Shown here in pieces: positions 10,085 through 61,459 of a stretch of 64,000 nucleotides of DNA. The translations under genes and the position numbers were made by a program. The stretch spans positions 6,611,888-6,675,887 of the forward strand of contig NC_092676.1 of the NCBI RefSeq assembly GCF_964355755.1, in the 5' to 3' direction. The stretch comes from Antedon mediterranea (Eukaryota > Animalia > Echinodermata). The notes under the pieces were generated by a model that saw only the letters and a list, made by a program, of their open reading frames with translations, searched no databases and had not been told where the DNA came from. Every line of letters starts with the position of its first letter. The stretch's first letter is position 1.

Positions 10085-10516
10085 TTTTAGGTAAGTTAAA
10101 ATTAGTTAATTATTTAGTTATCCCACCCGCTCGATTAAAAAATGAATAAATAAATCGCCTTCTTAGTTTTAAATTATGGATACGGCCACAACTATGCAAA
10201 AGAAAAGGAAAAACCAAAAACCAAAACAACTGCAGTTTATAATAAGTTAAAAAGATTCAGCAAAGATAATTATGGCGACGTTAACTTGATAACAGTGACA
10301 TTACATTTTGATTGGCTGTTTTAAGCACCCGTTCTTTGTAGGCTACCTGTATTTAGATTTCTCCAGTATTATAAGAAAATTTGGTAAATAAATATACAAC
10401 ATCACATGTATTTCATATTTATCTCCAATTATCATACCATAAACAAATCATTAACATAAAACCATGATGCGGGCACCACATGTGATCCAACAGCATTAGT
10501 AGAAGCAAAAATAACA

Positions 10517-11730
10517 TCAGCAGCAGCAACAACAGCAGCAGCAACAGCAGGAAAGCAACAGCAACGACAGTAGCAGCATCAATAATAACAGCAGCAACAA
10601 CAGTAGCAGCAACAACAGTAGTAGCAGCAACAGCAGCAGCAGAAACAACAACAGCAGCAGCAACAGCAAAACAGTAGCAGCAAAAACAACAGAAGCAGCA
10701 ATATCAGCAGCAGCAGCAGCAACAACAGTAGCAGCAACATCAGCAAAGGAGCAACAGCAGCAAAAGAGCAACATAAACCACATCAGTAGCAAGAATCATA
10801 GCAGCAACAGCAGCAGCAACAACGGCAGCAGCAGCAACAATAGCATCAGTAAAATCAGCAACAACAACAGTAGTAGCAGCAACAACAATAGTAACATCAA
10901 CAACAGTAGCATTATCCCCTGTAGCAGCAACAGCAGCAACAACAGCAGCAACAGCAGCAACAACAACAGCAGCAGCAACGACATCAGCAAAAACAGCAGC
11001 AGTAACAACAGCAGCAACAGCAAAAGTAGCAGCAGCAACATCAGCAGCAACAACAGTAGCAGCAACAACAGCAGTAGCAGCAGCAACATCAACAGCAGCA
11101 ACAACAGTAGCAGCAACAACAGTAGCAGCAACAACAGCAGTAGCAGCAGCAGCAACATCAGTAGCAACAACAGCAGCAACAACAGTAGTAGCAGCAGCAG
11201 CATCAGCAGCTACAACAGCAGCAGCAACAATGGAAGAACTAATGTCAGCATAACTCATTCATTTCATCTTTTATTTCGGAAAAAATAATACAGCAGCAGC
11301 AACAATAGCATCAGTAAAATCAGCAACAACAACAGTAGTAGCAGCAACAACAATAGTAACATCAACAACAGTAGCATTATCCCCTGTAGCAGCAACAGCA
11401 GCAACAACAGCAGCAACAGCAGCAACAACAACAGCAGCAGCAACGACATCAGCAAAAACAGCAGCAGTAACAACAGCAGCAGCAGCAACATCAGCAGCAA
11501 CAACAGTAGCAGCAACAACAGCAGTAGCAGCAGCAACATCAACAGCAGCAACAACAGTAGCAGCAACAACAGTAGCAGCAACAACAGCAGTAGCAGCAGC
11601 AGCAACATCAGTAGCAACAACAGCAGCAACAACAGTAGTAGCAGCAGCAGCATCAGCAGCAGCAACAATGGAAGAACTAATGTCAGCATAACTCATTCAT
11701 TTCATCTTTTATTTCGGAAAAAATAATACA
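10517..11730. repeat. Cryptic triplet repeat (GCA/ACA/GTA/TCA) with an internal ~440-bp tandem duplication
   Basis: The block ending atggaagaactaatgtcagcataactcattcatttcatcttttatttcggaaaaaataataca occurs twice (ends near 11290 and 11730). It is the source of the poly-Leu and Ala/Val ORFs. Confidence 0.9.
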
Positions 11731-13906
11731 GAGTACAAAATTCTCCATAGGTCAAGAGCAAATTAGTGTCTACAAGAAGTAAACACAAATAGTAAATACA
11801 GCATCAACTAATAATGCTATCATACTTTGGACTAGAAAACACACTTCATCTGCAAAGAAAAATTTACTTAGGTGTTTATCAATCTTGATATAATAACAAA
11901 TTTACAACCTACACCTATAATACATAAAGTCAAGCCGTCAGACATGAATGAATGAATAACGATTAAAACTTACTCATTTGGTTTTTGTATTTTTGTTGCA
12001 ATCAATAATCTTTTGTTTAATTCTAGAAAGTGTGTACGGTCATTAAAGAGTATAAGCGATATATAAACAGCAGTTCAATTATGCAAATCATAACCCACAA
12101 TGCATTTAATAATAATAATTTATTTGGAGATTACACTTTTACAACAGTGGCACTCGACCAAATGGAAGGTGCATCCAAGAGAAATATACATTTTATTCTT
12201 TTTTCTTCTAGATTTACATTTTAGGTCAATTGTTATCGACGATAATAGGTAATACGTACATTTAAAAAATTCAGAAGATATTGTGATTTTGAAGTGGTTA
12301 GCAGGCCTAGTAAAATCATCTAATTGTTGGAAATGTAGAAAATGTAAAAACAACGCACACACATATTATTCTGAGGCACGCGTTCAGGTGATGGTAATGC
12401 TGAAGTGACATGTCGAATGTAGGAAGATAAACATAGATGATTCTCTAAACTAAAAATTGGAAGCGTAATGGTTTTTTTTTAAAAATATAGGATTTGCATA
12501 GTTTTAAAAAGCTCTTATGATACGTTCGATGTATTACTTCGATAAAATAATAACAATTTTTTGTTTATCTTTTCAATCATAGTCAAAATAAGTACAAGGG
12601 TATGCCAACGTTCCATCTTTTCTGCCGACAGAACACGGACCGCCAACAATGTTGCAAAATAAACACTATTGGAACGGTTAGTGACGTATCAGGACGATTT
12701 AGCCAGCCAACCCAGATCAGAGACCTCAGTTTTAATTTGATTAAACCCGCTGATTGGCTGTGACATAGATGACCTAAGCATTATAATACACTATTTCAAT
12801 TTAATCACCAGGCACCACAATATAAATAAAATCACATCAAAAAGATTCACACAAAAAAACGGTGCTTTGTCATATACTGTATTTAAAACTAAATTATGGC
12901 ACATGGTTAATAAATACATGGTCAAATGCGTAATTTAGTATTGTAACGTAATTTTAAATTTTCGGAGGTTTTCTGAAGAAGAAGATAATTCAAATAAAAA
13001 TTACATTTTATTAATAATAATTATGAACTACTTAAAACATTTCCTAAAAAAGTGAACTTTCCGTAGTCCGATTTTAATCAAAATAGTTGTATTTATTTAT
13101 TTTTTATTTTTATTTATTAAAACATATTTAGGCAGAATAATTCAGAAAAGAAAAGTTCACAAAAAGATCACAAATTTCTGTATGGCAATATCTTGTTCTC
13201 AATCACTCGATGCAGATGCATCAATAGAGTAATATTATATTGCGCATACGATTTCTAAATGTTGTTGATCTTGATTAGCGGCAACATACATGGTGTTCAA
13301 AGAGCATGTTTGGCAACCGTGCTTTTGCATAGGATAGCTCGGTGGAAACTCGTTTGATGTCACCGTCGATATAATATCCTCCTACTTATTTTGTCCATGA
13401 TTCAATCATCATTTAGTTTCATATTATAAATAAGTTATAAATATTAAACTATATAACTATTATATCAATACGTTGTCTCTTGATTGTTTACATTTTGTTA
13501 ACGGTCTCTTCAATACTTAATATCATAAAAGTACATATTTATGATTGTTTTATGATTAGCTGCTGTTCTAAAAATGTTAATAGGGACTTGACAAAACAGG
13601 ACGGGAAGCCACAGGACGGTGCTCATTAATAATGAATGAGCTTCAACAAAGTGGGCGGAGCTTAGCGTGAAATTCCGTCGTAACTTTTTGAAGACGATAA
13701 AGTTCGAATTTTACCGTTTACGGATAACGACTAGAAATAATGGCATATAACCTTAAAAAGACAGTTCAAATTAAACTTAAAAGTGGCATTTTCGAAACTC
13801 TAAATAACATTTAAACTTCTAATTTAATTGTTTAACGAAATAACATTTTAATTGGATTAAAATGGCTGTGTTAAAAGCAATACCTTTTGCGCGGCGTTTG
13901 AATGCG
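10727..13906 (+). repeat. Copy 1 of a ~3-kb direct repeat (copy 2 at 61215-64000, running off the window)
   Basis: Colinear match from acatcagcaaaggagcaac through gcgcggcgtttgaatgcg, with a non-matching patch near 12000-12200. Confidence 0.9.
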
Positions 13907-14885: not shown

Positions 14886-16555
14886 GTTTGTTACAGAGCC
14901 ATATATAGAGAGAGTTACGACTTTGCGTTCACGGATTTTAGAAATAATAATAATAATAATAAGATTTGTATAGCACACATACCACTCCAGAGTGCTCAAG
15001 GCGCATTTAAAAATAAAAAAGAAATAAATCATACAAATTCCTGGCAAATAAAATGCAATTTCTTTGGAGGGTCCCCATCCGTTGTCGTTCTGTCGCGGTC
15101 CCGGACCCCTACCTAGGTGACCAAACAAAGGAACAGGATACACATTTGCCTTGCCACAGACGACCGGGTGCTCAGAGACAACAACCAAGACAGAGGCACC
15201 CCAAAGATAATGCTGGCCAGGAAAAGGTATACAAAACAATTCTAAGTCTAAACAACTTTAAGGAACCTCATGATTTCCATATGCCTTAATGAATAAATGT
15301 GTTTTTAATAATTTTTTAAAAGTATCAACAGTTTTGCAAAATCTTATAGAGCTCGGTAGAGCATTCCACAGACGAGGAGCAGTAACGGAGAATGCTCTGC
15401 CACCCCATGAGTGGTGAGACTTAGGCTGATGTAGAAGCAGCGAGTCACTAGAGCGCAGATTACGTCCGGGAACATACAGCCTAAGCATGTCAGAAATATA
15501 TTCAGGAGCCATGCCATTTATAGACTTAAAAACAAAGAGTAATATTTTAAAAACAATGCGGTACCTAACAGGGAGCCAATGCAATATTTCCAAAGTATTT
15601 GATATGTGTCCATATCTTGGTAATTTTTTAACAACTCGTGCCGCTGTATTTTGAATCAGTTGGAGCCTGTGGAGTTGTTTTTGTGGTAGCCCGTATAGCA
15701 AAGAGTTTACCATATCAAGTTGTGAAGTGACAAAAGCATGAACAAGTTGTTTAGCTGCTGTCTCATTTATAAACTTACGAATCCTTCGAATGTTTCGCAA
15801 GTGAAAAGACGACGCAGAAATAGTTTTTGAGATATGAGAAATCATAGTCATACCCACATCCATTTCAACCCCAAGATTTCTAACCTGCCTAGCCGGGTCA
15901 ATTTGGGTTTCACCAATGTGAATAAAGCTTGGTGGCAGTTTTTCCAACTGCTGTTTTGATCCAAAAAGAACAAATTCTGTTTTTTCATCATTTAATTTAA
16001 GAAAGTTGTTTTTCATCCAGACACGCAATTCATAGATACAATGTTGGAGCAATTCCAAAGAAATGTCACTGTGTTTCATAGTAGGTTTAAAAGAAATATA
16101 AATCTGAGTATCATCAGCATAAACATGATAGCACAGATCATATTTACTTATGATATCCCGTATCGGGTGTAAATAAATAGTAAACCATTGCGGCCCAAGA
16201 ACAGATCCTGGTGGTACCGAAAAGTTTAGAAAAGAAGCTTTTGAAATAGCATCACCAATACATACGTGTTGAGGTCGTTTTTCCAAATATGACCGACACC
16301 AATCATAAGTGCATTTCCTTCAATACCAATATAAGTACTGAGTCTATTTAGCAACACAGAATGATCAACCGTATCAAATGCTGCACTTAAATCTAATAAT
16401 ACTAGAGCAGTTAGCTTTCCATCATCCATCCCACGTACTGTAGGATGTCATTATTTACACGAAGTAATGCCGTTTCAGTACTGTGATGCGCTTTGTAGGC
16501 AGATTGATACGGATCAAGTAGGCCATGTTTTTGTACATGCGATAAAATCCGTTTA

Positions 16556-19500
16556 TTTATTTTATTTCATCATCACCCTACAGTGACCAAACGTCACCAT
16601 TAACAGGGCTGAAAGTCGTAAAATATAACATATAATATACAAGCAAAAATCAACAGATAACAAGACAACATTTAAATATTACTGACATTAGACAAAACCT
16701 TGTGACGGAAACAAGCAAGGGAATCAAAAAAAATATCAACAGATTCATCAATTTTACATAGTGAGTGGTATAACTTAGGCAAACGATTAACAAAACCATT
16801 TTTAGTAATATTTACCCTCCCTCTTGATATAGAAAATAAAGCAGGATAACGCAATTGATATTGTGGAACAGAAATAGGAAAGTACACTTCAAAATTACCA
16901 TGAAAAATTGAGTTCACAGCCTTAAAAAGAAAAATTAAATCAAATAACTTACGCCTACCCGCTAAATTAATAAGAACGTCTTTGCTAATAGAACCAAATT
17001 TACGCACATAAAATCGACAAAACTTGTTCTGAACACTTTGTAATCTAGAAGACTGGGCAAGAGAAATAGAGTTAAAAATAACACTGCAGAATTCAAGATT
17101 CGACCTAACTAAAGATTTGTATAAAATAACTAATGCCTTTTTATCGTTGATATGTCTGCAATGTCTCCAAAGAAAACCCAAAAGTCTATTGCATTTAGAG
17201 ACTATAAAATCAATATGTTTACAGAAGGTTAATGAACTATCTAAAAAAACACCAAGGTCTTTGTGAACAGAGACTCTTTCAAGTATAATATTCTTAATAT
17301 AAAAGTCAAAATAGATGGGTTTTTTCTTAAGAGTAAAAGACATTGATTTGCATTTAGAGGCATTGACTGACATATTCCAAGTGTCGCACCAGTGAATGAG
17401 TCTGTCAACGTCTTCTTGTAACAACAACATATCATTTAAAGTTTGTATAGACTTAAATAATTTGATATCGTCAGCAAACATAAGAACATTAGAATGACGA
17501 GGAACAAAGGAAAAATCGTTAATAAACATAATGAAAAAAAGAGGCCCCAAAATAGACCCCTGAGGCACGCCAGATAAAACTGGAAGCCATTCAGACGCGT
17601 TACCATCAAAAGTGACTCTCTGAAACCTGTCCGATAAATAACTTGTAAAAAATAAAATTAAATCGTGATTTAGACCAAATTGTTGAAGTTTAAACAAGAG
17701 CAACTTATGGGAGACCCTGTCAAAGGCTTTAGCCATGTCTGTATATACAACTTCGCATTGCCCTTTTGCATTTATTGCGTCATACGCATGTGACAACAGA
17801 ACAGACAAATTTGTTTCACAAGACCTTCCTGGGTAAAATCCGTGTTGATGGTCACTAATAACTGGTGATATATGTTTAAAAATTTGGTCGTGAACAATTT
17901 TTTCAAAAACTTTAGAAATAGTTGGCAACAATGAAACCGGTCTATAATTGCGTACATCAGATTTAGAACCAGCTTTAAAGATAGGGCACACGTTAGCTTG
18001 CTTCCATTTTATCGGAAAACGTTTCTCAGAAATGCATCTTTCAAATAAAATTTTACAAGGGAAAGAAAGAGGTTTGGCAGCTAAAGACAAAACAATATTA
18101 CTTAGACCATCATTACCTGAAGCCTTATGAGAATCAATTCCATTAATGTGCTTTTCTATAACCTCCTGATTAAACTCAAGTTTAGATAAGCAATCGATGG
18201 GATATTCAGGAAGATTAGGAACATCCAAATCGTTGTTAACAGGACTAAAAACAGAATAAAAAAATTGATTAAGTAAGCTTGCTTTGTCTTTTACAGTGTA
18301 AGCTGACTGATTATTAAAATGTAGTTCCGAAGGAATGTTATTATTATTTTTTCTTGAGGATTTTATCCAAGACCAAAAACGTTTCGGATTACAACTTAAA
18401 TTACAACATAATGAATTAACATAGGTTCGATACTTAAATCTACAAAGTCGTTTAAAATTTGACCTAGCAAATCGAAAATTTTCAATATTTAACCTATTTG
18501 GATTACGTTTTTTTTCTCTAAAATATGATTCTTTAGATTTCAAAGCAGTGTAGAGCTCATTATCAAACCATGGTGGGAGTTTTCTCTTAGGTCTGAAAAC
18601 AGGGACGAGATCTTTGATAGTAGCAAAAATAAAATCATAAAATAAATTAACTGCCTCATCAATGTCAACGGCAAGATCAAGTAAATTCCAAGGAATATGA
18701 GAAAGTGTTTGTATAAAATCTAATTTGTTAAGTTTTTTAAAATTATATAACAATCGATCGTCATTATTGATAAGGTGTTTGTTAAACTCTATAGGATATT
18801 TAAAATTTATTGCACAGTGATCAGAAGTGAAAATATCTTCACCGAATGAAACTTCATGGCATATAGTATTGCACAAGGCAAGATCAAGAGTGTGATCGGC
18901 ACATGTCGGAAAATATACAAATTGATTAAAATTATTACCCTGTAAAATATTATCTATAAAAAATTTGCCATTGGAGTTGTCGGGAGCTTCACATTCTACA
19001 ATATTGCACTTATTATAACTATTCAAACGCCATTTTATCTCAGGTAGATTAAAATCTCCTAATAACATAACGTCATGATTGAAACCCTGAAATTCATATT
19101 GCACATTGTTTATAGATTCACAGAGACGATCGATTTGAGATTTAGGTGCCGATGGTGGGCGATAATATATACCAATAATTAAACATTTTTTTCTAGACAG
19201 TTGAATTTTGACCCACATTAGTTCTTGACTTTCATCTTCAAACTTAATGAGACGACACGACCTGTATTTGTTGTTAATTAAGAGTAAAACTCCACCGCCT
19301 CTCTTGTCCTCTTGCCGGTCCCTGCGATATAGATTAAAGCCATCTAAAGACATTTCACAATCAATTAAAGTGTTATTTAACCAGGTTTCAGTTAATGCTA
19401 CAACGTCTATGTATCTTGTGCACATGTGACTAAACAATTCCGATTTATATGATTCCATTTTATTTTTTACACTACGAACGTTTTGGTAGTACACCTTTAA

Positions 19501-20291
19501 AGAGCTACTTTTGTTGTTCGAATTAGTAGCATTCGGGCCAGGATTGACTTCTATGTCCCCTCCAAGTACAACAGACCAAATACGTAGAGTACTAACCGAA
19601 TTTGAATAGTATGACACAGCCCTGCCAAGGAATTTAAACTTCGATTTCTTTCGTACTTGTAATGATGTAAGGCCAGTTATTGTTATTGCACATTTTGAAT
19701 AATAAATAGGTATCGGATGAAAATCGTCGTCAATGTAAACAGCATCATTAAAATAGTAGAAAAAGTATTGCACAAAGTTGTTCATAGAACGTTGTGTAAG
19801 TTCCAATTCGACTTGGTTCCACTTAACATACTGACCTGGACAGCTGGTTATTGCACATTTTGAATAATAAAATGGTATCGGATGAAAATCGTCGTCAAGA
19901 ATAAATCGAATGTAGACTGCATCAGTAAAATAGTAGAAAAAATATTGCACAAAGTTGTTCATAGAACGCTTTGTATATTCCATTTCAACTAGGCTCCATT
20001 TAACATTTGCATACTGACCTGGACAGCTGACTACACAGACCCCTTCACACACCGGTAATGCTATTCTTTGAAATTCGCTCTGCCGGCCTAGGCTTATTGT
20101 GCTAAAATTCACGTATTTATACAAAGATTGGTGAAAATTGTTGTCACAATTGCATCCATATCCACTCCAAAACACTTCGTGATCATCATTAAAGGGATAT
20201 TGTGTTGGGGTAAACGAGAAAGTAAATGAAATAAACCAGACACAACAGAGCAAAAATACGGCGGTGTTCATTGTTCAAATTCCGACTGGCT
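16556..20291 (-). mobile_element. Apparently intact single-ORF CR1-group LINE inserted in the L2
   Basis: Candidate TSD gttta (16551-16555 and 20292-20296). It has an A-rich (TAAA/ATAAA) tail, a 3' stem-loop gtgac-caaac-gtcac at ~16582-16597, and a 20-nt leader before the ATG. Confidence 0.88.
16672..20271 (-). CDS. LINE polyprotein, 1199 aa: N-terminal 245-aa module, 2A-like peptide, APE endonuclease and reverse transcriptase
   Basis: Uninterrupted ORF with DIEVNPGP at aa 239-246. APE motifs: YQNVRS, LTETWL, GGGV, YYRPP, GDFN, LDL, SDH. RT motifs: NYRPVSLL, DMAKAFDRVSH, GVPQGSILGP, FADD. Confidence 0.93.
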   Translation of the reverse strand: MNTAVFLLCCVWFISFTFSFTPTQYPFNDDHEVFWSGYGCNCDNNFHQSLYKYVNFSTISLGRQSEFQRIALPVCEGVCVVSCPGQYANVKWSLVEMEYTKRSMNNFVQYFFYYFTDAVYIRFILDDDFHPIPFYYSKCAITSCPGQYVKWNQVELELTQRSMNNFVQYFFYYFNDAVYIDDDFHPIPIYYSKCAITITGLTSLQVRKKSKFKFLGRAVSYYSNSVSTLRIWSVVLGGDIEVNPGPNATNSNNKSSSLKVYYQNVRSVKNKMESYKSELFSHMCTRYIDVVALTETWLNNTLIDCEMSLDGFNLYRRDRQEDKRGGGVLLLINNKYRSCRLIKFEDESQELMWVKIQLSRKKCLIIGIYYRPPSAPKSQIDRLCESINNVQYEFQGFNHDVMLLGDFNLPEIKWRLNSYNKCNIVECEAPDNSNGKFFIDNILQGNNFNQFVYFPTCADHTLDLALCNTICHEVSFGEDIFTSDHCAINFKYPIEFNKHLINNDDRLLYNFKKLNKLDFIQTLSHIPWNLLDLAVDIDEAVNLFYDFIFATIKDLVPVFRPKRKLPPWFDNELYTALKSKESYFREKKRNPNRLNIENFRFARSNFKRLCRFKYRTYVNSLCCNLSCNPKRFWSWIKSSRKNNNNIPSELHFNNQSAYTVKDKASLLNQFFYSVFSPVNNDLDVPNLPEYPIDCLSKLEFNQEVIEKHINGIDSHKASGNDGLSNIVLSLAAKPLSFPCKILFERCISEKRFPIKWKQANVCPIFKAGSKSDVRNYRPVSLLPTISKVFEKIVHDQIFKHISPVISDHQHGFYPGRSCETNLSVLLSHAYDAINAKGQCEVVYTDMAKAFDRVSHKLLLFKLQQFGLNHDLILFFTSYLSDRFQRVTFDGNASEWLPVLSGVPQGSILGPLFFIMFINDFSFVPRHSNVLMFADDIKLFKSIQTLNDMLLLQEDVDRLIHWCDTWNMSVNASKCKSMSFTLKKKPIYFDFYIKNIILERVSVHKDLGVFLDSSLTFCKHIDFIVSKCNRLLGFLWRHCRHINDKKALVILYKSLVRSNLEFCSVIFNSISLAQSSRLQSVQNKFCRFYVRKFGSISKDVLINLAGRRKLFDLIFLFKAVNSIFHGNFEVYFPISVPQYQLRYPALFSISRGRVNITKNGFVNRLPKLYHSLCKIDESVDIFFDSLACFRHKVLSNVSNI

Positions 20292-20634
20292 GTTTAGAAA
20301 CAACCTTCTCAATTATTTTTCCTAAAAAACTAAGATTCGAGATAGGTCTGTAGTTTTTCAGAATCTCGGGATCTAGACCTGTTTTTTTCAATGTGGGTCG
20401 AACATGGGTGACTTTTAGAGACTCTGGGAAAGAACCACTTTCAAGAGATGTCTGTGAAGTTGGTTACTAGTTCCTAGTTCCTTATTCAAATTCAATTAAA
20501 GGGACAGTCAAAAATATTTTTAAAAACAAATTTTAATATGTAATAACTGTCTAATTGAGTTGTTATTGCATCAACATGTTAGCCTTGACCTCCTTTTACT
20601 TCTTCCGGTCAAAGTTCAATAACATTTTATGCAT

Positions 20635-21870
20635 TTACGCCTTCTACGGCGAATAAGTAACTAGCTTTTACGAACGTTATAACACTTGACCTACTTAATA
20701 TTTTCAAAATATTTTGGTATAGATCGATGACTCTTGACCTACTCTACCATTTTCCACCCTAGTTCCGCGAAATTTTGTTCATCTACGCCCTCTACGGCGA
20801 ATAAGTAACTGGCTTTACGAACGTTATAACACTTGACCTGCTTAATTTTTTCAAAATATTTTTTGTTATGAATCGATCACCCTTGACCTACTCTACCGTT
20901 TGCCACCCCAGTTCCGCGAACTTTTTTGCGTCTACGCCCTCTACGGCGAATAAGTAACTGGCGTTACGAATGTTATAACACTTGACCTACTTAATTTTTT
21001 CAAAATGTTTTGGTATGGATCGATCACCCGTGACCTACTTTACCATTTGCCACCCCAGTTCCGCGAACTGTTATGCATCTACTCCCTCTACGGCGAATAA
21101 GTAACTGGGTTTACGAACGTTATAACACTTGACCTACTTAATTTTTTCAAAATATTTTGCTATAGATCGATCACCCTTGACCTACTCTACCATTTGCCAC
21201 CCCAGTTCCGCGAACTTGTTTGCGTCTACGCCCTCTACGGCGAATAAGTAACTGGCTTTTACGAACGTTATAACACTTGACCTACTTAATTTTTCCAAAA
21301 TATTTTGGCATGAATCGATCACCCTTGACCTACTCTACCATTTGCCACCCCAGTTCCGCGAACTTTTTTGCGTCTACGCCCTCTACGGTGAATAAGTAAC
21401 TGGCTTTTACGAACGTTATAACACTTGACCTACTTAATTTTTTCAAAATATTTTGGTATGAATCGATCACCCTTGACCTACTTTACCAATTGCAACCCTA
21501 GTTCCGCGATTTTTTTTGCATCTACGCCCTCTACGGCGAATAAGTAACTGGTTTTACGAACGTTATAACACTTAACCTACTTAATTTTTTCAAAATATTT
21601 TGGTATGAATCGATGACCCTTGACCTACTTTACCATTTGCCACCCCAGTTCCGCGAACTTTTTTGCGTCTACGCCCTCTACGGCGAATAAGTAACTGGCT
21701 TTTACCAACGTTATAACACTTGACCTACTTAATTTTTTCAAAATATTTTTTGCATCTACGCCCTCTACGGTGAATACGTAATTTGTTATGGGTAGATGAC
21801 CCTTGACTACTTTACCATTTGCCAAACTAGTTCCGCGAACTTGTACCTATGTCCTTTTATGGCGAATTCA
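20635..21870 (+). repeat. 147-149-bp tandem array (~8 units), left arm of the foldback
   Basis: tctacggcga-type motif recurs at 20643, 20791, 20940, 21087, 21234, 21382, 21530 and 21677. Confidence 0.92.
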
Positions 21871-23233
21871 TTTTAGTTTTGTTTTGACTTGTTACAACAT
21901 GCAATTTTAGAAGATAATTTCTGAAGCAAACACAAATACAACAGTTTGCTTATAAACGATAACCACAAGTTATTATTCCGTTATGATTCATTAACACTTT
22001 CCAACACAAGTACAACATGAATACCTGAAATTAAAACAGCATTTAAAGTAGGCTCTATCGTAGTAAATAAACTAGAACTAATAAATAACTTCTTACGTCA
22101 ACATGTGACGACACACTGCATAGTTATTTAATACCGCCCCACAATGTTAAGCCGGGCTATTTTTTCTTGTTAATTACAACAGTTGCAATCGATCAAATGT
22201 AATATCTTTTTAAACGTGCTTACAGTATCCATTCTATAAAAGCGCACAAACAAAACAAATCTGAACTGACGTTTTTTTTTAATGTCATTAAACAGCAACT
22301 GTTACTTAAAAACAGTTTACACTACCTAACAGCAAAATTAACATATTATTCATTAATACTGTTATTAATATTAAAAAGCGCACAATATTCATTGAGTGAT
22401 AATAGTCGTTTAAACACAATATACAGTAATATTTTTAAAGCTATATTTGCACAGTACCCGTCTATACCTCACAATATAAATTGGGTGGAATATTGTTTGA
22501 AAAACGGTTTAGGCTTATAGACTTTATAACAACAAAATTAACATATTGTGAAATAGGCCTTTAACCTTTAATGTGAAACATAGTCATTAATAATCCTTTA
22601 TTAATTAACAATTAAAAAGCGCACATTCTTCCCTGGGTGAATAAAGTTGTTTTAAAAACAATACAATAATTGTAATGTAACGAATGTAATGTTGAACTGT
22701 AAGTAGCCGGGGTCCAAGGGCCGAGTGCCCGGGAAAAATTTCGGTATCTGACGCTTTCAAGACTGATTTATGGATTGTTATTTTATCGATGACCATCAGA
22801 ATCTCACACAAAAACAACAGCTTCAGTGAATGCAACTATACAAAATATGTAAACGAACATACTGTAAGGCGGCATAGATTAGACCGCATGTATTTTTTGT
22901 CAAGAGGATCACAAAACTCGCACTGAATAAATAAGAGTAAAATGACATTTGTAGATATTGTTTATTGCTATGAAATTATCTCCTCAACACCATGGCCAAT
23001 GAAATACCCGACAAATAATTAGGCCTACTAAAAGGCTAGGCCTAAAGACCGTCCACGAGAGGATTCACCACGAGCCACTTAGGTAGGCCTAGTGCATGTT
23101 TCTCTCTTTTTATCATATTTACCATAAAACGTACATTTAAGACAAGGAATGACATGGCTTAATGTTTTTAAGGTATATATATATGCATTTATTTTTAAAA
23201 ACGTCACAAATTGTTGAATTTGCCAATTAAATG

Positions 23234-25110
23234 TTTTTTTTTTTTTAATTTAATTTAATTTGATTTCATTACCATCTTTATTGAGGGTAGCCTATCCAGT
23301 TCCAAATAGAACTGATCATTCAGGGCACTCGATAAAACATACATACAGTACAATACAGTACAGAATATAAAATTCAATAGGAGTTAAAATCGTTGACAGA
23401 TAAAATATATATACATGGTACAAACAATATTAACTGGAAATAAATTCTTTAAGTTCACGTTTAAAGGAAATAATATTTTCAGATTGTCGAATGATTTTAG
23501 GAATTATATTAAAATACATAGGCGCTTTATAACTGAAACATTGTTTAAAAATCTCTAATGAAGGTCGAGGAATAATATAATTACAATTAGAGATGGATCT
23601 GGTAGTTGGTCGACCTCCGGGCTGAGTCCTGGTTAACATGCGACTGATGTAATCCGGAACGGTATTGATGGAAGCCAGATAGGCGAGACAACCAAGTTGA
23701 AACTGATAACGTTGAGAAACGGATGAAATAGAAAGGGTGTTATCAATAAGGTGGGATGAGGTATGAGGGTGAACTTTCAAAATAACTCTTTTAGCTCTAT
23801 TTTGAAGTTTCTGGACTTTAGCAACGAGTGGTGCTCGTGAGCCCCAGATAGAACAACAATAGTCAATATGAGGTAAGACAAGAGCATTGTATAATATAAG
23901 AGATGTAGCTTGGTGGACAAATTTTCGAGTTCGGGCGAGGTTGGAGATAGAGGAACTTAATTTGTTGCACAACTTATCAACGTCCGGAATAAAAGTAAGA
24001 TGATGGTCTAGAATGATGCCAAGATTCTTATGTTGGGTGACCTGTTTGATAGGTAAGTTGCTAATAGAAACATTTATAGGCCAGAGTGAAGAAAGCCTTT
24101 GTTGCGTTCCAATTACCATCACTTCAGTTTTTTTAGTATTGAGCGCTAGACGATTAGCTAGAAGCCAAGTGGAGATTTTATCGAAGTCAAAATTAAGATT
24201 GGTTACAATATCGTCAACCTTATCGCTAGAATTGTAAATTATGGTATCATCAGCAAACATATCCATAGAAGAGTACGATAAAAAATTGGGGAGATCATTT
24301 ATGTATATGGAGAATAATAGTGGTCCAAGGTTGGATCCTTGAGGTATACCAGCGTTGAAATTAATAGATGACGATATAGTTGATTTGTAACAGGCATGTT
24401 GCTGACGTCCAGTAAGATAGGCTGTAAACCATTTCACAGCCGATTCGGAAAAACCATAAAGGGAAGTTTACGTAACAGAATTTCGTAGTTTACTAGATCG
24501 AACGCTTTCCTTAGATCAATAAAAACTGAACCAATGATTTTACCTTCATTTATACTGTGGATCCAGCTGTCATGAGTTTTAGTGATAGCAGTAATTGTAG
24601 AATATGTGGGACGAAATCCAGATTGGTTAGGGCAGAGAAGATTATTTGAAGAAAGATATTCCAGTACTTGCATGCCGACGGCCTTCTCAATCACCTTAGA
24701 CATGATAGGTAACACAGATATAGGTCTGTAGTTATCCGGTAGATGTTTGTTACCGGATTTAAAGATGGGAGTAACCTTACCAATTTTCCACGAGAGAGGG
24801 AAGCTCTGACTGGAGATGGAAGTATTAATAATCTGTGTGAGGAAATTTGCGATGATGGGGGCTGCCGTCCGAACGAGCTTACCATCAATACCGTCGTGTC
24901 CAGCAGATTTCGCAGAATTCAGTTCGGAGATTTCCTTCAATACAAAATCAGTACTAACATTATGAAAAGAAGAACATTGTTTAAGAAATGAACATGGATC
25001 AACATCAGTAAACTGAAGGTTTGACGTTATATTATTTGCAACATTTGTAAAATAAGTATTCAATTCCTCTGCAATTATAGCAGGTTCGTTAGTGGTAGCA
25101 CTAACTACCA
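23234..25110 (-). mobile_element. 5'-truncated, frameshifted CR1/L2-group (Crack/Daphne-like) LINE inside the foldback
   Basis: ORFs 24434..25150 and 23430..24437 carry NYRPISVL, FIDLRKAFDLV, GIPQGSNLGP, FADDT and LPHIDYCCSIWG. The 3' tail (ttaat)n/poly-T is near 23234-23262. Confidence 0.88.
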
Positions 25111-25285
25111 AAAAAAACAAACAAAGCTGAACTAATGTTTTTTTTTTCAAATGTCATTACAGCAACTGTAAAAAAAGTTTACACTACCTTATAACAGCAA
25201 AATTAACATATTCATTAAAACTGTTACCGTTAATATTAACAATTAAAAAGCGCACACTATTCATTGAGTGATAATAGTTACGACA

Positions 25286-26285
25286 GGTCAAGGGTGATCG
25301 ATTCATACAAAAATATTTTTAAAAATTAAGTATGTCAAGTGTTATAACGTTCGTAAAAGCCAGTTACTTATTCGCTGTAGAGGGCGTAGACGCAAAAAAG
25401 TTAGCGGAACTGGGGTGGCAAATGGTAGAGTAGGTCAAGGGTGATCGATCCATACCAAAATATTTTTAAAAATTAAGTATGTCAAGTGTTATAACGTTCG
25501 TAAAAGCCAGTTACTTATTCGCCGTTGAGGACGTAGACGCAAAAAAGTTTGCGGAACTGGGGTGGCAAACGGTAGAGTAGGTCAAGGGTCATCGATCTAT
25601 ACCAAAATATTATGAAAAAAATTAAGCAGGTCAAGTGTTTTAATGTTCGTAAAGCCAGTTACTTATTCGCCGTAGAGGGCGTAGATGCAAAAAAATTCGC
25701 GGAACTAAGGTGGAAAATGGTAGAGTAGGTCAAGGGTCATCGATCTATACCAAAATATTTTGAAAATATTAAGTAGGTCAAGTGTTATAACGTTCGTAAA
25801 AGCCAGTTACTTATTCGCCGTTGAGGACGTAGACGCAAAAAAGTTCGCGGAACTGGGGTGGCAAATGGTAGAGTAGGTCAAGGGTGATCGATCCATACCA
25901 AACTATTTTGAAAAAATTAAGTAGGTCAAGTGTTATAACGTTGGTAAAAGCCAGTTACTTATTCGCCGTAGAGGGCGTAGACGCAAAAAAGTTCGCGGAA
26001 CTGGGGTGGCAAATGGTAAAGTAGGTCAAGGGTGATCGATTCATACCAAAATGATATGAAAAAATTAAGCAGGTCAAGTGTTCCAACGTTCGTAAAGCCA
26101 GTTACTTATTCGCCGTAGAGGGCGTAGATGCAACAAAGTTCGCGGAACTAGGGTGGAAAATGGTAGAGTAGGTCAAGAGTCATCGATCTATACCAAAATA
26201 TTTTGAAAATATTAAGTAGGTCAAGTGTTATAACGTTCGTAAAAGCTAGTTACTTATTCGCCGTAGAGGGCGTAAATGCATAAAA
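25286..26285 (-). repeat. Inverted copy of the 147-149-bp array (~6-7 units), right arm of the foldback
   Basis: ttattcgccgtagagggcgtaga and aagtaggtcaagtgttataacgttcgtaaa units. Confidence 0.92.
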
Positions 26286-28317
26286 TGTTATTGAACTTTG
26301 ACCGGAAGAAGTAGAGGAGGTCAAGGCTAACATGTTGATGCAATAACACCTCAATTACACAGTTATTACATATTAAAATCTGTTTTTAAAAATATATTTG
26401 TGACTGTCCCTTTAATTGAATTTGAATAAGGAACTAGGAACTAGGAACTAGTAACCAACTTCACAGACATTTTCAAGAGACTTATTAACAATATGTGTGA
26501 TTAATGGAATAAATGCAGAAGTACATTTCTTAATCAGTGAAGTTGGTACCGGGTCAAGTGCACACGATTTAGAGGGAGAATTTTTGACAATTTTTAAAAT
26601 TTCCTCATCACTTGCAGGTTCGAACTGAGAAAACCGTATAGACCTAGTAAAACCATAAGATATATTACATTTATCAGAAGCAGTTATAACTTCGCCAGTA
26701 TTTTCATTTTCTAGTGAATCACGAATTGATTTAATTTTATTTACAAAAAACACAGAAAATCTTTCAGCAAGAGCTTCATCGGAGACAGACGAAGGAAGGA
26801 CCGATGACTTGGAGTGATGTAAAAGTTTATTTACTATATTGAAAAGTTTCTTTTGATCACCTGTGCAGTCACTAACCAGACTAGAGTAATACCGCGTCTT
26901 GGCCTTTTCAATCAGTCCATTTACAACGCATCTTTGAACACAGTATTCCTGTCTATCCTTAGGAAGCTTTGATTTCATCCATTTACGTTCAAGTTGACGA
27001 CGTACTTTCCTTTCAGATCGAATTTCATCGGTATACCACGGTTTAGCTTCCTTTTGCCTAATTGTTTTGTTTTGTTCTGAACTGGCGCATGTAAATCAAG
27101 TACAGCTCTGAGATCAGAATAGCTTTCTACACTGTCTTCAAGAATTACACTTACATCGGTTATATTAGACACACAGGCTTTAATGTCATTTGTGAATTTC
27201 TCAATATCAATTTGTTTTAGGTTGCGACTTTTTCTTACAGTTTTGTGTGTTGTGGGCCGTTTAAGATCAAACTTGCAAAATATGGCAAAATGATCTGACA
27301 GGCCAGGGTGTATCTTTACATCCGAGAGAAGTAGATCATCTCTAGTGATGATAAGGTCGAGGCAGTGCCCACTACAGTGTGTGGGTTCATTTATATGCTG
27401 CTGGAGACCAAACGATCTAAGCAGTGTTTTAAATCTATCGGGCTGCCACATTTTTTTTATTATCCATATGGATATTAAAGTCTCCGCAGAAAACAATTTC
27501 AGACGAAAAGAGAATAAAGTCAAACAACGTTTTTTCAAAATCATTTAGGAACTCTGTAACAGACAAGGTTGGTGGTCGATATATGTTAACTAAACGAAGA
27601 GATTTCGAGTTAGACGTAATATGCACATGTATAGCCTCAAATGATGCATATGTATGTACATCCGTTTTCAAGTTAACAACTAAGCTTGACTTAGACAGAA
27701 TTCCAACACCACCCCCAGTTTTGTCCACCCTAGGGACATGCACAAAGCGATATCCTAGTATCGAATTTAATATCAAAACAATCAATTTGTTTAAAGGTTT
27801 TTGTTAAGATATTTAACGAAATCATAAAGTTACTGCGAACATGATTTTAAACAACAAAATGTAAAAACAATGCATTACTATAGAGAATCGCTGTACAAAC
27901 TAAACGCGCACGCGTAGAGCGTGCATGGAGCGCACAACCAGAGCCGTTCCGAAATTGCTATTTTTGTTGTTTTAAATCATGTTCGCAGTAACTTTATAAT
28001 TTTTTTATTATTTTAACAAAAACCTTTAATCAAATTGATTGTTTTGATATTAAATTCGATAATTAAAGCCTTTTGAACGTTATACATTTTCAAAACAAAA
28101 GACTCAACTCCATACGCTATATAGGAATAGTTGGACCATGGAGGTATAAAAAAGATGGTTGGACACAAACACGGCTTCTAATCCATTCAATGCCGTAACT
28201 CTCTCTACATTATGGCTCTGGTTTGTTAAGGTCAACAGCGCCCTCTATCTATTATCGAGAAGTAAGGAGTGCAGTATCTTACGTCACAGGCAGTATCGCG
28301 GGGTGGTGGCTATGTAA

Positions 28318-33649: not shown

Positions 33650-34561
33650 TGTGAGGGTGTAAATTGTACTCCTCCGCATAGAATAAATAGGACGGGACAA
33701 TTTACATGTTAGTCCAGTTTTATGACACTGGTTAATAAAAATAAATAAATAGTGTTACATAAATATTTATTATCACGGTCTAATATGGCATTTTTAATGT
33801 ATGGGTAGATAATGTGTTAAGCGGAATAATCCATTACGCGTATTCGTCGGAGAATGGTAAGCTTGGGATGATACCTGATACATCCTCTCTCCTTCGGACG
33901 CTTGCATCGACTAGACGTGTATTTGCCTAGCCTGTTAAACAATTTAATTATTTCTTTTTGTTGAGAGCACATCGTTTGATCTTGATGTAATCTGTAAGTT
34001 TTAAATATTGTTTAATTTATAATATGTTTAGGTTAAATACAGGTTAACCTGGTTTAAGTTTGTTAAATTTACTTTTGTCTCTATATGCATTAGCACTCCA
34101 CTGGTACGGCGACGGTTGCACTGGGTGTAACCTGTTGAGTGTTGTGTGCGGTACATACGATCGTAATTCTTAGCTTAGCGATGTTAGAAGATTGATCCAA
34201 ATATCCCTTAAGGAATCTGAATTAAGGCTAAAACCTTATTTACTTTGTTTATCATATGTTAGCCTAGTATGGAATATTATGTTTTACCGTGTTAATTGAT
34301 AGTTATGTTAATTTAAGTCTGATAAAGTTCTATGACCTTGTGTTTAGTGGGTCGTTGATTATTCGAACATGTGCGATGTTTATGGCTTTCAATCCTGTTT
34401 ACTGTTAGCGACGGCTGCAGTGTTGTGTTGGGTTTTAGCTTCTGTTTCTGTTATTAAACAATTGCGATTAAACTGGAAACTGAATCAGGTCTGTGTCAGT
34501 GATCATTAATTGCTCTCTCACAAGCTATTCAAACACCAACGGACACGATCCGAAGGTCACA
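33650..34561 (+). repeat. 5' LTR (912 bp)
   Basis: tgtgagggtg...ggtcaca, directly repeated at 40188. Confidence 0.93.
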
Positions 34562-34665
34562 TAATTTTGGTGCCGAAACCTGTTTTATAAATCCAATTTG
34601 TTTAAAAAAAAAAAAAATAAATAAAATAAAATAAAAAGGTAACAGTATGGCTAGTAACCAACACA

Positions 34666-36000
34666 ATGCTGCAGCGGGTTCATCGCTGGATGCATCAATA
34701 CCAGATACCGATTTCTACAAACACACCTATAATGCCGGAACTTAGTATCCAAGGACAACCGAGGCGACCACGACCAAGACTTCCCAGATCCAGTACACCA
34801 ATGAGTGGTACAGTAAACAGCCCAGAGATGGCATCGGACGTCAGCGTAGTTCAACCAGGGTCATCGCCGCTGCTGTTGGCTGGATTTGATCCACCACCTA
34901 CAATGGATACTGTACCAAGAGTGATCTCATCCCATCAGATAAAGACTGTTCCCACATTTACTGGGAGGGACAAGGATGGATTAAAGGTGGAAGACTGGGT
35001 TAGAGATATTAAGTATTTGTTAAGATCTAAAGGTTATTCTGCACCGTTTCCCCAATTCCATGAGATTGTAAGACACACTGGGAGTCGGGCCCGTGACCTG
35101 GTATTGAACTTGGAGAGTAGGGGTCCAGACCTAATGACACCTGATGCTGCTCTGAAAGAATTGGTCAGAGAGTACGGGGACTTAAACGTTACTCTGTCAC
35201 CTATGGCAGCTTTTTATGCCCGTTTTCAGCAGTCCACGGAAACGCCAAGGGACTATGCAATTGCGCTTGAAGCACTGTTACGCCGAGTATGTGGCCAACT
35301 CAAGTCACAACATTCTGAACTGATGGATCGAGATGGGGTTTTATGCACCCAGTTCATGTATGGCCTGCGAGATGTAGAGGTAAAGAATCGGCTGGCTCCG
35401 ATGCGGCCAAGGCAGATGAAATTCGGAGCTTTAAGGGAAGAATTACGCATCATCTCCTATGAGTTGGCACAAGACCGTGATCGGTTTGGCGGGTCCCACC
35501 AAGCAAAGCTGTATTCACAAAACCGTGGTACAAAGGCCGAAGCAAAATCAACGACACCAATCACGGATATCAGCCTCGAGATATTAGAGAGATTGAAGGC
35601 TTTAGAGGTACGTATCCATGGGATCGAGAACAAGGCAGAAGATTATGGCAGACCTCGGGCACAACCCCGAAGGAATGCCTGCTTCAAATGCGGCAAAATT
35701 GGTCATTTTGCCAGAAACTGTTTTCAGACTAACAATCACCCCGCATCAGTGTCACAGCAGCAACAACAGGCTTACTTTGAAAATCAGACACCTTTTCAGC
35801 CACAAAATCACCCTGTACAAATACCACAGCAGCCGCCACAACAAATGTACTTTGAACATCAGATTCCATTCCCACCACAAGGCCCTCTTTAACAATTTGG
35901 CAGACCATGGTATCCCACTAGTCAACAGCTTCCAGTAAACCAACAAACAAGGCGACCTGAAACAGCTGCTGCCAGCCATAAGCCTTCTTTAAACGGGTAG
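34666..36000 (+). pseudogene. Gypsy gag (PNMA-like capsid, CCHC knuckle) with premature TAA at 35890-35892
   Basis: Motifs VPTFTG..VEDWVRDI, QFMYGL and CFKCGKIGHFARNC. The same frame continues past the TAA to PSLNG*, with slippery TTTAAAC at 35988-35994. Confidence 0.85.
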
Positions 36001-39000
36001 GACCTGCAGACGACGGGCTATCTGTTGGTATGAATTTTCACAAGTGCCCAAAGAAATCGATAAAGGGATTAATCGGTCCAGTGAATGAAGCTATTGTATC
36101 CATATCTGGTCAAGTTTGTAATGCTCTTTTAGATACAGGTTCGCAAGTTACAACCATCACTGCAGATTTCGTCAATACTCATCCAACTTTAAAGATCCAA
36201 AAGCTACAGCCAGTTGCTGTAACATTGAAGGGGCTGGGGGTCAGTTAGTACCCCACCATGGTGTTCTGCTCATCAACTTGGAAGTAATGGGAGTAAAGTT
36301 GGAGGCGGTTCCGGTACTGGTTGTACCATCAACGACATCTAGAGTAAAGATGCCCTGTCTCGTTGGAACGAATGTGATACGACCAACACGTGACAAACTA
36401 CATGGTCAGTATGGACGGTCATTTATGGAAATCGTTCGGGAGAAATCTACTACATGGTTTGCAGCATACCAATCTCTAAATGGTGATGGGATGGACCTTG
36501 CTGATGCAACTGGTGAAATAGGAGCGATTCATTATAGGGGACGTCCAATCACTTTTAAGCCTGGGGCCCAGCGAGATGTCGTTGGATGTGCACCAACCCA
36601 CACAGACGGCCGCACATTTTGTGGACTTGTTGAGGATGGTGACCCGCAGGAAAATTTGAGGGTAGGCAGTTTACTGACAGAAGTCAAGGAGGGTAAAGTA
36701 ACTGTGCGGATGTGTAACCTTTCATCAACAACAGTGATGCTTAATAAAGGTAATCTAATAGCTAACTTGTTGTATGCAACACCAGCCGAAGACTTAGCAC
36801 ATACAACTCGACTCGTTCTTTCCAGTGAAAACTCGGTGTTGGTAAACAAACAGGAATTAAAGCAAATACCTGATGTACATGTTCGAACTGGAGACTTGTC
36901 AGAAACAGAAATTAAGGCCCTCCACAATATCCTCTGTCAAAACTCTGATGTCTTTTCCATGGGTTCAGATGATTTTGGCCACACCAAAACTCTTCAGCAT
37001 GATATACCCCTCATCGATTCAACCCCATTCAGAATGCCATATCGCCGCATACCACCCTCAGACTTCAAGGAAGTAAGAGAAAATATTCAAGGCCTAGAAA
37101 GTGCTGGTGTTATAAAGGGAAGCAAGAGCCCATTTGCCTCTCCTATCGTCATTGTTAGAAAGAAGACTGGCCAGATCAGACTATGCGTCGACTACCGAAA
37201 ACTCAACTCAAGGACGGTTCGTGATGCGTATCCGCTTCCGAGGATCGACGAATCTTTAGATGCATTGGAGAAAGCTCGTTATTTTTCAAGTTTGGACTTA
37301 ATGTCTGGCTATCTGCAAGTGCAGATGGCCGAAGCTGACCAACCTAAGACGGCATTCACAACTCCACTGGGTTTATTCGAGTATACGAGGATGCCTTTCG
37401 GATTAACTAATGCCCCTGCTACCTTTCAACGCCTAATGACTGTAGTATTTGGAGATATGAACTTAACAGAGGTACTCATTTACCTGGACGATATTATCAT
37501 ATTTAGCTCAACTATAGAAGAACACCTCATGCGTTTAGAAAAAGTATTTTCTCGATTGCGAGAACATGGACTTAAATTACAACCAAATAAGTGTCACCTA
37601 CTTCAGCGAGAGGTCAAATATCTGGGACACAGGGTCTCCGAACACGGCATCTCGACCGACCCAGAGAAAACTGAAGCAGTAAGAGAATGGCCGGTCCCTA
37701 AGTCCAAGAAAGATGTTAGAAGTTTTTTGGGATTCACAGGATACTACCGGAGATTCATTCAAAACTATGCCAAGATAGCGAAACCTTTGTTTGAGATGAT
37801 CGGAGGTAAACACAAGCCTAAGGGTACAACCAAGCTGCCAGAGTTAAAATGGACTGACGAGTGTTTAGTATCATACAATACCTTGAAGCAGAAGATGTTA
37901 GCTACTCCTATTCTATCTTATCCAGATTTCACACTACCATTTGTTTTGCAGACGGACGCCTCCCTAGATGGCTTTGGAGCCATCCTGGCTCAAATCCAGG
38001 ATGGGCAAGAGAAGGTAATCGCTTATGCAAGTAGAAGCCTCACCGCTGGTGAAAAGCATTATCCGGCACACAAACTGGAGTTTAGAGCGCTACATTGGGC
38101 TGCGACTGTGAAATTTAAAGATTACGTCTACGGACATAAGGTATTGGCTCGCACCGATAATAACCCACTCACGTATGTCCTTAAATCAGCTAAGCTAGAT
38201 GCACATGGTCAGCGCTGGGTTAACGATATGGCAAGGTGTGATCTTGAGATCGAGTACCGACCGGGAAAGTCGAACGATAATGCAGATGGTCTATCTCGTA
38301 TTACAAGGTTCGAAGTTCAAAAGGCCCTAGACAGCGCTACTGGCATTATGGGTGCCCATCACGCCAACCCTGTTATATCTCACTACTCACAAATCCTACC
38401 AGAATTAGATACCGAAGAAATTATCCGTGCGCAACGGAATGATGAATCCATAGGAAGGGTATTGGAATTGTTCAGCTGTGGTGGAAAACCAAGTAGACGA
38501 CAGGCTAACAAAGAAAGCAGAATGGTGCAGACATTGTTAAGAAAATGGGATCATTTTGCAGTTCAGGCGGGAGTCTTAGTTTTCCAACAGGTAGATGGCC
38601 AACGAAGGGTACTTTTGCCAAAACTTTACCGCAACAGAGTATTGAAGAGCGTCCACGACCAGATGGGTCATCTCGGATATGACCGCACTCTCTCCCTTCT
38701 TGAAGAACGATGTTTTGGCCAAACTTGCGAAAAGAAGTACGAACCTATATTGACAGATGTAAAAGATGTACTTTACGTAAAACTCAGGACCCACCAGCCA
38801 TAGCACCATTATCTGGAATTAAATCATCTCGACCATTGGAGTTAGTTTGTCTGGATTTTCTGAGTCTGGAAGCTTCGTCGGGTGGAATAGAAAATGTTCT
38901 TGTAATCACGGATCATTTTACTCGATACGCGCAAGCTTACCCAACAAGGAACCAGACAGCTGTGACGGTGGCCCAGACCTTGTGGAGCAAATTTATCATA

Positions 39001-39936
39001 CACTATGGGACACCGGAAAGGATACACAGCGACCAAGGGAAGTATTTTGAGGCTGAGGTTATACAGGAACTGTGCAAACTGCTTAAAATAAAAAAGAGCC
39101 GAACCACACCTTATCACCCACATGGGAATAGCATGACGGAGCGATTCAACTCTACATTACTCAATATGTTGGAAACGCTTCAGCCTCACCAGAAACCTCG
39201 GTGGCGTGACTATGTAGAGACCATGACGCACGCCTACAATTGTACCACGCATTCATCAACTGGGTTCACTCCATTCTTTTTAATGTTTATGCGGAAACCG
39301 AGAGTGCCTTCAGACTTAGTATTTGAACTAGAGACAGATGGAGAGGAATTCACTGACACAAATGAAGCTGATTTCGTCCATCGACTCAGAAACCAACTTC
39401 AAGAAGCTTACGACTTAGCAGCGACGCATGCAAATGCTGCAAGAAAGAAGCAGAAAAATGCGTACAACAAAAGGTCCCGTGGAGTTGATTTGAACGTTGG
39501 AGACTCTGTTTTAGTTGCTAACAAATCATTGCGTGGCCGTAATAAACTGAGAAATAGATGGGAGGAAACACCATATACCATTATTCATCACATCCAAGGC
39601 CAGCCCACATTCACTGTGCGCCGAAATAATGATGGCAGAGACCGAACTGTTCACCGTAACCTATTGACGCCATGTACCTTTGAAAATATTGATAGTGGTG
39701 GTAGTAGTTGCAACAGCGCACAAGAGTCTCCTTCAACTGATGATGATGATCCAGAAGTTTACAGAACGGATAATCCAGACTTGATTCCTCCTCCCGCTGA
39801 ATTTTGTACTCACTCCCCCACTACTAACATTACGGATAAGGATGGGCACGGCAGTGATTACTTTGCCAAAAGAGTTAGACTCCCACCTAAACGGTTTGGA
39901 GAATGGGAAACTAATGCTGTTTTTTCTCGTAAATAA
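35988..39936 (+). pseudogene. Gypsy pol (PR-RT-RNaseH-IN), broken by frameshifts near 36235 and 38710
   Basis: LLDTGSQVT, RLCVDYRKLN, YLDD, TDAS, RTDNNPL, HDQMGH..CKRC, CLDF, HSDQG, TERFN. Confidence 0.93.
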
Positions 39937-40187
39937 GAATATGCTTATAATTTTTATCTGATTATGTCGTTGGGACAACATCACTCTTAACCTGGGGTGG
40001 TGTGAAGGTACATACCTGTATATGCAGACATTTTTAAAAGTATTTACTGTAGATAGGTTACACGGCTTAATTTTTTTTAAAAATTTTATATCTTTCATTT
40101 TATATTTTTAATTTTATCTAATTATGTAACTATGGTATATCATATGTAATGTTGTTAGGGACTAACAACGATTTAAGCTGTGGTGGA

Positions 40188-61065: not shown

Positions 61066-61214
61066 CAAAAATCTCTCTTCCACTCTGAAGTGCAAGTTCT
61101 CGGAGTCGTTTTCTTGTTTGTTTTCCGAATAAAAAATGATTCCGAGACACGGTTCACATCTTGCGAGAGAAAGCACGTGCTTGCGGATTACTATTTCTCT
61201 GATGTGCAGATTTC

Positions 61215-61424: not shown

Positions 61425-61459
<35 letters not shown>

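Follow-up and report, generated by a model that had tools for sequence, protein, structure and literature searches.

2A peptides are already known in LINEs without ORF1 (Odon et al. 2013, PMC3708506; Luke et al. 2013, PMC3894237). In the accessible portions of these papers, such elements, mostly with a single ORF, have GD(V/I)ExNPGP towards the N-terminus of the APE-RT ORF and no ORF1. The motif lies ca 40-80 residues from the N-terminus, a typical rather than strict distance (PMC3708506), and the 2A is proposed to lower ORF2p output (PMC3894237). From the accessible text of De Felipe et al. (2010, PMC2978324), failed skipping behind an N-terminal signal takes the fusion into the ER, and a longer 2A protects the skipping from this effect. 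In the part available of Doh et al. (2014, PMC3945221), Ty1 Gag on SRP gives a precedent for ER-localised translation of a retrotransposon.

The element described here likewise has GD(V/I)ExNPGP in a single APE-RT ORF and probably lacks ORF1. Its 2A stands directly before APE, and the known 2A LINEs likewise have marine-invertebrate members. It differs in that its 2A lies at residue 245, behind a long leader that opens with a predicted signal peptide.

Boundaries and ends of the element

The window, a 64,000-nt stretch of DNA, contains the following features.

16556-20291, minus strand: single-ORF LINE, CR1-like, full-length and intact (empty-site joint 16550->20292)
16551-16555: 5-bp target-site duplication on the element's 3' side, GTTTA on the plus strand
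20292-20296: 5-bp target-site duplication on the element's 5' side, GTTTA on the plus strand
20272-20291, minus strand: 5' UTR of at most 20 nt (junction and copy ends)
16672-20271, minus strand: single ORF of 1199 aa with leader, 2A, APE and RT (open reading frame, Pfam)
20215-20271, minus strand: predicted signal peptide, aa 1-19, with an uncharged hydrophobic core (hydropathy; AF2 helix 3-19)
19846-20028, minus strand: leader repeat 1, aa 82-142 (DNA alignment)
19681-19845, minus strand: leader repeat 2, aa 143-197 (DNA alignment with repeat 1)
19534-19662, minus strand: extended 2A cassette, aa 204-246 (profile of 13 relatives)
18808-19497, minus strand: APE endonuclease, ca aa 259-488 (Pfam PF03372, PF14529; start from profile of relatives)
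17326-17964, minus strand: reverse transcriptase, aa 770-982 (Pfam PF00078, E 2.9e-33)
16556-16671, minus strand: 3' UTR with predicted terminal stem-loop and (AAAT)n tail

Copies of the element were read from contigs of public sequencing runs. The joint 16550->20292, at which five letters fit either side, is present in contigs of all four runs, and GTTTA stands at both 16551-16555 and 20292-20296; therefore the element is 16556-20291. When the two flanks are placed side by side, the reading frame of the host sequence is continuous across the element. We take this host to be an L2-like RT fragment that is older than the element. The joint makes the 5' junction at 20291 exact, and the ATG lies 20 nt inside it, as stated in the first-pass annotation. 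The same annotation described an intact ORF of 1199 aa, and this ORF is indeed uninterrupted by stops; its N-terminus is MNTAVFLLCCVWFISFTFS.

APE and RT share this one ORF (PF03372, PF14529, PF00078; the Pfam span of APE is aa 277-488). A target-site duplication, a simple-repeat 3' tail and 5'-truncated copies are all present, as in an APE-type non-LTR retrotransposon. Compared by eye with the Odon supplement, the RT segment near the YTD..KAFD motif is most like the CR1-19_NV, DMCR1A and T1 rows. In a tree of the matches, which holds no named reference elements, the clade of the window is sister to a group with mosquito and other insect matches. The stem-loop prediction for the 3' UTR is weak (z -1.59; 13 of 200 shuffles fold equally well). 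At the other end, the first 150 nt of the element fold worse than shuffles (z +1.42) and an Rfam search of 16400-20500 gave nothing at E 1, so that no 5' ribozyme is suggested.

Contig depth, which is not a copy number, drops steeply from 3' to 5' along the element, indicating that 5' truncation is common; truncated copies cut at 19574 and 19876 are present in run contigs. At the element's 3' end (16588-16731), depth in runs X1 and X4 is ca 50 times that of the leader, pointing either to numerous short copies or to a SINE with the same tail.

The 5' ends of copies could be read in three of the four runs (X1, X3 and X4), the X12 contigs stopping short of the element end. In X1, over 19500-20316, loose 5'-side ends fall at 20278 and 20282. 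They fall at 20278, 20279 and 20282 in X3, two flanks being common to X1, and at 20271, 20274 and 20278 in X4. Counting the window's own, at least six different flanks lie no more than 21 nt from the ATG, and they are unlike one another over the first 30 letters. A 5634-nt contig joins at 20278 in X1 and X3 with its flank unread. No upstream sequence common to copies was seen in the flank letters read. Since full-length copies end at 20271-20282 with different flanks, the element probably has no ORF1 and almost no 5' UTR. A second signal-2A element gives the same picture: between two of its copies (L006 and L055, 91.5% identity, among 72 metagenome loci), homology starts 2 nt before the ATG and none is found upstream. 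The absence of a separate ORF1, claimed from the window alone, is supported by the clustering of copy 5' ends at the ATG that had been proposed as a check. In X1 and X3 the leader is contained in one contig with two differences from the window, which points to a young family. Many CR1-clade LINEs have an ORF1; the present element, whose likeness to CR1 was judged by eye, differs from them in this respect.

Upstream ORFs were considered in two related loci. In L056, the ORF is a beta-propeller exon of the host. In L006, Pfam gave no match and the ORF resembles a gene of another transposon, presumably DIRS-like. Neither was therefore counted as ORF1.

Other repeats lie near the element. At 20448-26470, a ca 6-kb element with long inverted ends (ca 1.2 kb, 92% identical) is built of 147-bp tandem repeats, interrupts the same L2-like host and shows very high contig depth at its end; it resembles a foldback-type DNA transposon. 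It contains a further LINE fragment (23430-24266). An LTR retrotransposon at 33650-40938 has 751-bp LTRs that are 98.8% identical; its gag- and pol-like ORFs occupy 34666-39936, with pol divided into two ORFs. Finally, 10488-13906 and 61214-64000 are related segments (95% over 1.7 kb), each adjoining a CAG/CAA-rich low-complexity array.

2A cassette and hydrophobic start

A six-frame scan of the window for the 2A pattern gave a single match, the D-I-E-V-N-P-G-P core at 19557-19534. The predicted skip site, G245|P246, is 13 residues upstream of the APE start; the 2A motif had been correctly placed directly before APE from the sequence alone. The core closes a conserved cassette of ca 43 residues, in the order basic cluster, YYxN, hydrophobic tract and GDIEVNPG|P, with YYxN lying 22-29 residues upstream of the skip site. 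The window's cassette scores 53.3 bits against a profile built from 13 relatives with the window left out. When the core is excluded, the stretch upstream of it scores 27.3 bits, a value reached by 0 of 2000 shuffles. The window's 2A lacks the Phe that nearly all relatives have after YYxN, and it reads GGD where most relatives have SGD.

The motif belongs to a class with active published members. In supplement 2 of Rao et al. (2025, PMC12338488), as far as it is accessible, the YYxN-type sea-urchin 2As STR-51, STR-69 and STR-197 are marked active and STR-40 is untested. Activity of YYxN-type 2As is also in line with the available text of Odon et al. 2013 (PMC3708506). In a screen of retroelement 2As, 43 of 580 were highly active and 56% were mid-range according to the accessible part of the preprint (bioRxiv 10.64898/2026.09.24.754024). 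Because homologous YYxN 2As are active, ribosome skipping at G245|P246 is plausible; it would probably be partial, given the missing Phe after YYxN and the small number of highly active 2As in the screen.

The start of the ORF had been described as hydrophobic and signal-peptide-like, and aa 1-19 are indeed hydrophobic and uncharged by hydropathy, a trait that recurs among relatives. The signal peptide is predicted from hydropathy and rules of thumb. Its n-region has no basic residue, and cleavage after T-F-S is presumably possible by the -3/-1 rule. Helix 3-19 is the only part of the AF2 model of the leader with pLDDT above 50. No second membrane-length segment was found in the leader by hydropathy. 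The predicted mature part contains 8 Cys and one N-glycan sequon, at N55. W12 occurs only in the window's copy; contigs of X1, X3, X4 and X8 have an allele encoding S.

Base composition contributes to this start. The first 36 codons are 41% T, another frame is nearly as hydrophobic (2.87 vs 3.02), and stop-free base shuffling yields a hydropathy this high in 44 of 878 cases. Judged by these counts, T-richness accounts for part of the window's signal-like hydropathy. For the starts of two related loci, L002 and L006, 49 of 496 and 41 of 630 stop-free shuffles match the observed score. Their coding frames are the most hydrophobic of the three (2.43 vs 1.54 and 0.35 for L002; 2.59 vs none and 0.23 for L006). 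As a control, one of 26 blocks of the APE-RT body passes the hydropathy cut-off used for signal-like starts.

Relatives were collected in two overlapping protein searches, of which the first gave 94 proteins and the second, seeded with chosen signal-bearing proteins, 108. The best named match is a protein of the crinoid Antedon mediterranea (41% identity over aa 215-720), with its own GDIEQNPGP. APE was located in 189 of 190 proteins and a 2A-like motif in 40. A signal-like start was defined as an uncharged segment of 10 residues near the start with mean hydropathy of at least 2.0, in leaders of at least 70 aa (n=53); the start codons of the relatives are automatic gene calls. Such a start is found in 19 of 27 leaders with a 2A, versus 3 of 26 without (counts with the window; a degenerate 2A is present in one of the three). 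As the second search was seeded with picked proteins, first-search matches alone were recounted: with the window excluded, 10 of 16 leaders with a 2A have a signal-like start versus 1 of 13 without (Fisher p 0.006). At hydropathy cut-offs of 1.8 and 2.3, the association gives p 0.002 and 0.02. A FastTree phylogeny was built from 183 rows after removal of 7 short ones. On it, the 16 rows with both signal and 2A need 13 label changes, compared with a shuffled mean of 15.5. Thus, they are scattered and do not form one cluster of near-copies.

Other arrangements were also observed among the relatives. Four loci (L007, L010, L011 and L012) form a second leader class that starts with M-x-x-D-I-x-T-(Y/F) and has a 2A but no signal-like start. 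Each of the four has a further ORF upstream (168-230 aa) that overlaps the start of ORF2 and for which Pfam gave no match. In L004 (799-975), two canonical 2A motifs stand in tandem, 30 residues apart, before APE.

Composition and conservation of the leader

The leader of 245 aa is long for its group, since the leaders of 18 relatives with signal and 2A measure 85-123 aa. One relative, P0005, has a called leader of 236 aa that falls below the hydropathy cut-off. Among the relatives compared, none has a leader middle like the window's, and sister elements with 56-58% identical APEs carry unrelated leader middles. In another part of the group, P0081, P0106 and P0125 have leaders that are 46-57% identical and APEs that are only ca 36% identical, which suggests that signal-2A cassettes may have been exchanged between distant LINE families.

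The Cys/aromatic-rich region noted in the first-pass annotation exists, but most of it consists of two tandem copies, aa 82-142 and aa 143-197, a duplication that the annotation had missed. The two repeats (61 and 55 codons) share 82% DNA identity over 183 aligned columns, with gaps in frame only (6 and 12 nt). The duplication accounts partly for the unusual length of the leader. Over 55 codons, we counted 8 synonymous and 8 nonsynonymous changes between the repeats. With transition weights from 1 to 5, these 16 changes give a dN/dS of 0.20-0.33 and a binomial P of 0.006-0.04. The values point to modest purifying selection on the duplicated segment, at the protein level, unlike the rest of the leader. 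Between copies, the alleles listed for aa 12-101, which mix active and decayed copies, show at least 11 nonsynonymous and at least 3 synonymous changes and look near neutral. The spacer of L006 and L055 has 12 nonsynonymous and 2 synonymous codon changes and their APE 30 and 18, L055 being a decayed copy. All leader indels seen are in frame: the 183-nt duplication, the 6- and 12-nt gaps and a 6-nt insertion present in one diverged copy. This suggests translation from M1, not that the residues matter.

Homology searches with the leader were negative. No homologue was found at E 0.01 among 5.8 billion proteins (659-2099 aa only; 411 candidates), among 1.84 billion representatives, or in ESM Atlas or PDB sequences, and tblastn against the 72 related metagenome loci gave no match. 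In Pfam, the leader has no profile match to RRM, PHD, CCHC or esterase ORF1 domains, in agreement with the earlier reading that it holds no known ORF1 domain. The only Pfam match, Myb-like, is sub-threshold (16.8 bits vs a cut-off of 22.9, E 0.0077) and was dismissed as chance. A BLAST hint that the repeats could be decayed 2A cassettes (E 0.011) was also discarded, as 672 of 1000 and 235 of 1000 shuffles score as high. AF2 models, for which there were no useful alignments, reached a pLDDT of 31 (leader) and 53 (one repeat). Foldseek found no match at E 0.001 to the repeat model in PDB or BFVD; the models being of low confidence, this speaks neither for nor against a fold.

Role of the leader and comparison with known systems

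We favour, with a probability of roughly 0.55, a reading in which the leader is targeted to the ER and released by the 2A part of the time, the cassette limiting or localising APE-RT synthesis rather than delivering a conserved cargo. The observed basis is that the element starts ca 20 nt before the ATG and that the frame is kept open through the leader. SRP would bind aa 1-19 and dock the ribosome and the LINE RNA at the ER. As homologous 2As are active, some ribosomes may release the leader at G245|P246 and then make APE-RT from the Pro. The released leader would have ca 226 residues after signal cleavage, with its 8 Cys, the sequon and no second membrane segment. Reporter work suggests that unskipped chains would be pulled into the ER and their APE-RT lost to retrotransposition, so that activity would be dampened. 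The conserved 43-residue basic/YYxN cassette would shield the skip from the translocon. The leader middle would be lineage-specific, grown here by tandem duplication under modest constraint. The dN/dS of the duplication counts against this limiting or localising role, as it indicates more constraint than a pure spacer needs.

That constraint would fit the idea put forward in the first-pass annotation, in which the leader works as a cargo protein, secreted or luminal, that the lineage acquired and expresses through the signal-2A cassette. The length of the leader relative to those of the 18 relatives, the Cys residues and sequon of the mature part, and the P0081/P0106/P0125 leaders, which indicate that some leaders are conserved or exchanged as units, would fit a cargo as well. 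However, the repeat test rests on 16 changes, no leader homologue was found in the protein, representative, ESM Atlas, PDB or 72-locus searches, and pLDDT values are low. The listed changes between copies in aa 12-101 are mostly nonsynonymous, as are those in the L006/L055 spacer relative to APE. A conserved cargo in place of ORF1 is not supported, given relatives whose leaders are short and whose middles are unrelated, and a constraint that is modest and confined to the duplicated segment. We consider a cargo function doubtful. The same holds for its broader form, in which an interchangeable signal-peptide/extended-2A cassette would serve marine-invertebrate LINEs as an expression slot, loaded here with a ca 226-aa secreted passenger made of two constrained Cys-/aromatic-rich repeats.

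The leader could also be a translated 5' region, its hydrophobic start a T-rich by-product and the 2A merely trimming a peptide off APE-RT. With a 5' UTR of at most 20 nt, an internal promoter would have to lie in coding DNA, and this reading agrees with the T-rich start, its nearly as hydrophobic second frame, the 5-10% of stop-free shuffles that score as high in the three elements examined, and the lack of conservation of leader middles. It is unlikely, as the coding frame is clearly the most hydrophobic of three in L002 and L006, the signal-2A trait recurs on distant branches and the bias towards synonymous changes between the repeats indicates constraint on the protein. Finally, copies may be 5'-truncated at a hotspot, a master element having a longer UTR and an upstream ORF1. 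Truncation is common in this family, the flank of the 5634-nt contig is unread, four signal-less 2A relatives have an upstream ORF, and Odon et al. (PMC3708506) list, in the accessible text, 2A elements with ORF1. Against this stand the at least six distinct flanks within 21 nt of the ATG and the L006/L055 homology that likewise ends at the ATG. In 9 of 13 signal-type relatives, moreover, the longest contig exceeds the ORF by less than 600 nt, a weak indication because contigs may be broken. A longer master element is therefore highly improbable.

The usual picture places LINE proteins in the cytosol and the nucleus. Should the signal prove genuine, LINEs of a widespread ORF1-less group would be translated at the ER, with one frame divided between the secretory pathway and the cytosol. 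The arrangement of signal, spacer and 2A is a design also built by biotechnologists, and the YYxN cassette may be a 2A that still works during ER translocation. Were the cargo reading true, a non-LTR retrotransposon would make an extracellular protein in the same frame as its reverse transcriptase. Being intact, nearly the same as other full-length copies and unusually long in its leader, the present copy suits reporter and retrotransposition tests. It offers a testable handle on two questions raised by Odon et al. and Luke et al., the role of the sequence upstream of LINE 2As and the control of ORF2p without ORF1.

In the literature searched, which included few subscription journals and left Repbase notes and theses outside, we found no report of a separate signal peptide upstream of LINE 2As. 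The accessible main text of PMC3708506 makes no mention of signal, hydrophobic, transmembrane or secretion. The signal-plus-2A layout was not found by term searches of PMC12338488 and PMC11203168, nor in the available portions of PMC12846837 and PMC4120745. The present case adds copies whose 5' ends cluster at the ATG, a leader of unusual length and, within it, a duplication under constraint. The YYxN context of the 2A matches that of sea-urchin STR-51, STR-69 and STR-197 (PMC12338488, accessible part); STR-51 and STR-69 are placed in L2 and STR-197 in Rex1, whereas the window's RT looks CR1 by eye. Ty1 Gag, as described in the available part of Doh et al. (PMC3945221), likewise brings retrotransposon RNA to the ER co-translationally via the first product; unlike the present LINE, Ty1 is an LTR element without 2A, and its Gag returns to the cytoplasm. 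In sea-urchin NLRs (Roulston et al. 2016, PMC4981915, accessible text), a signal and 2A recoding likewise divide the product between the cytosol and the secretory pathway. There, the 26-aa 2A is itself the signal and the genes are host immune genes, whereas in the window the predicted signal and the 2A are ca 185 residues apart and belong to a transposon.
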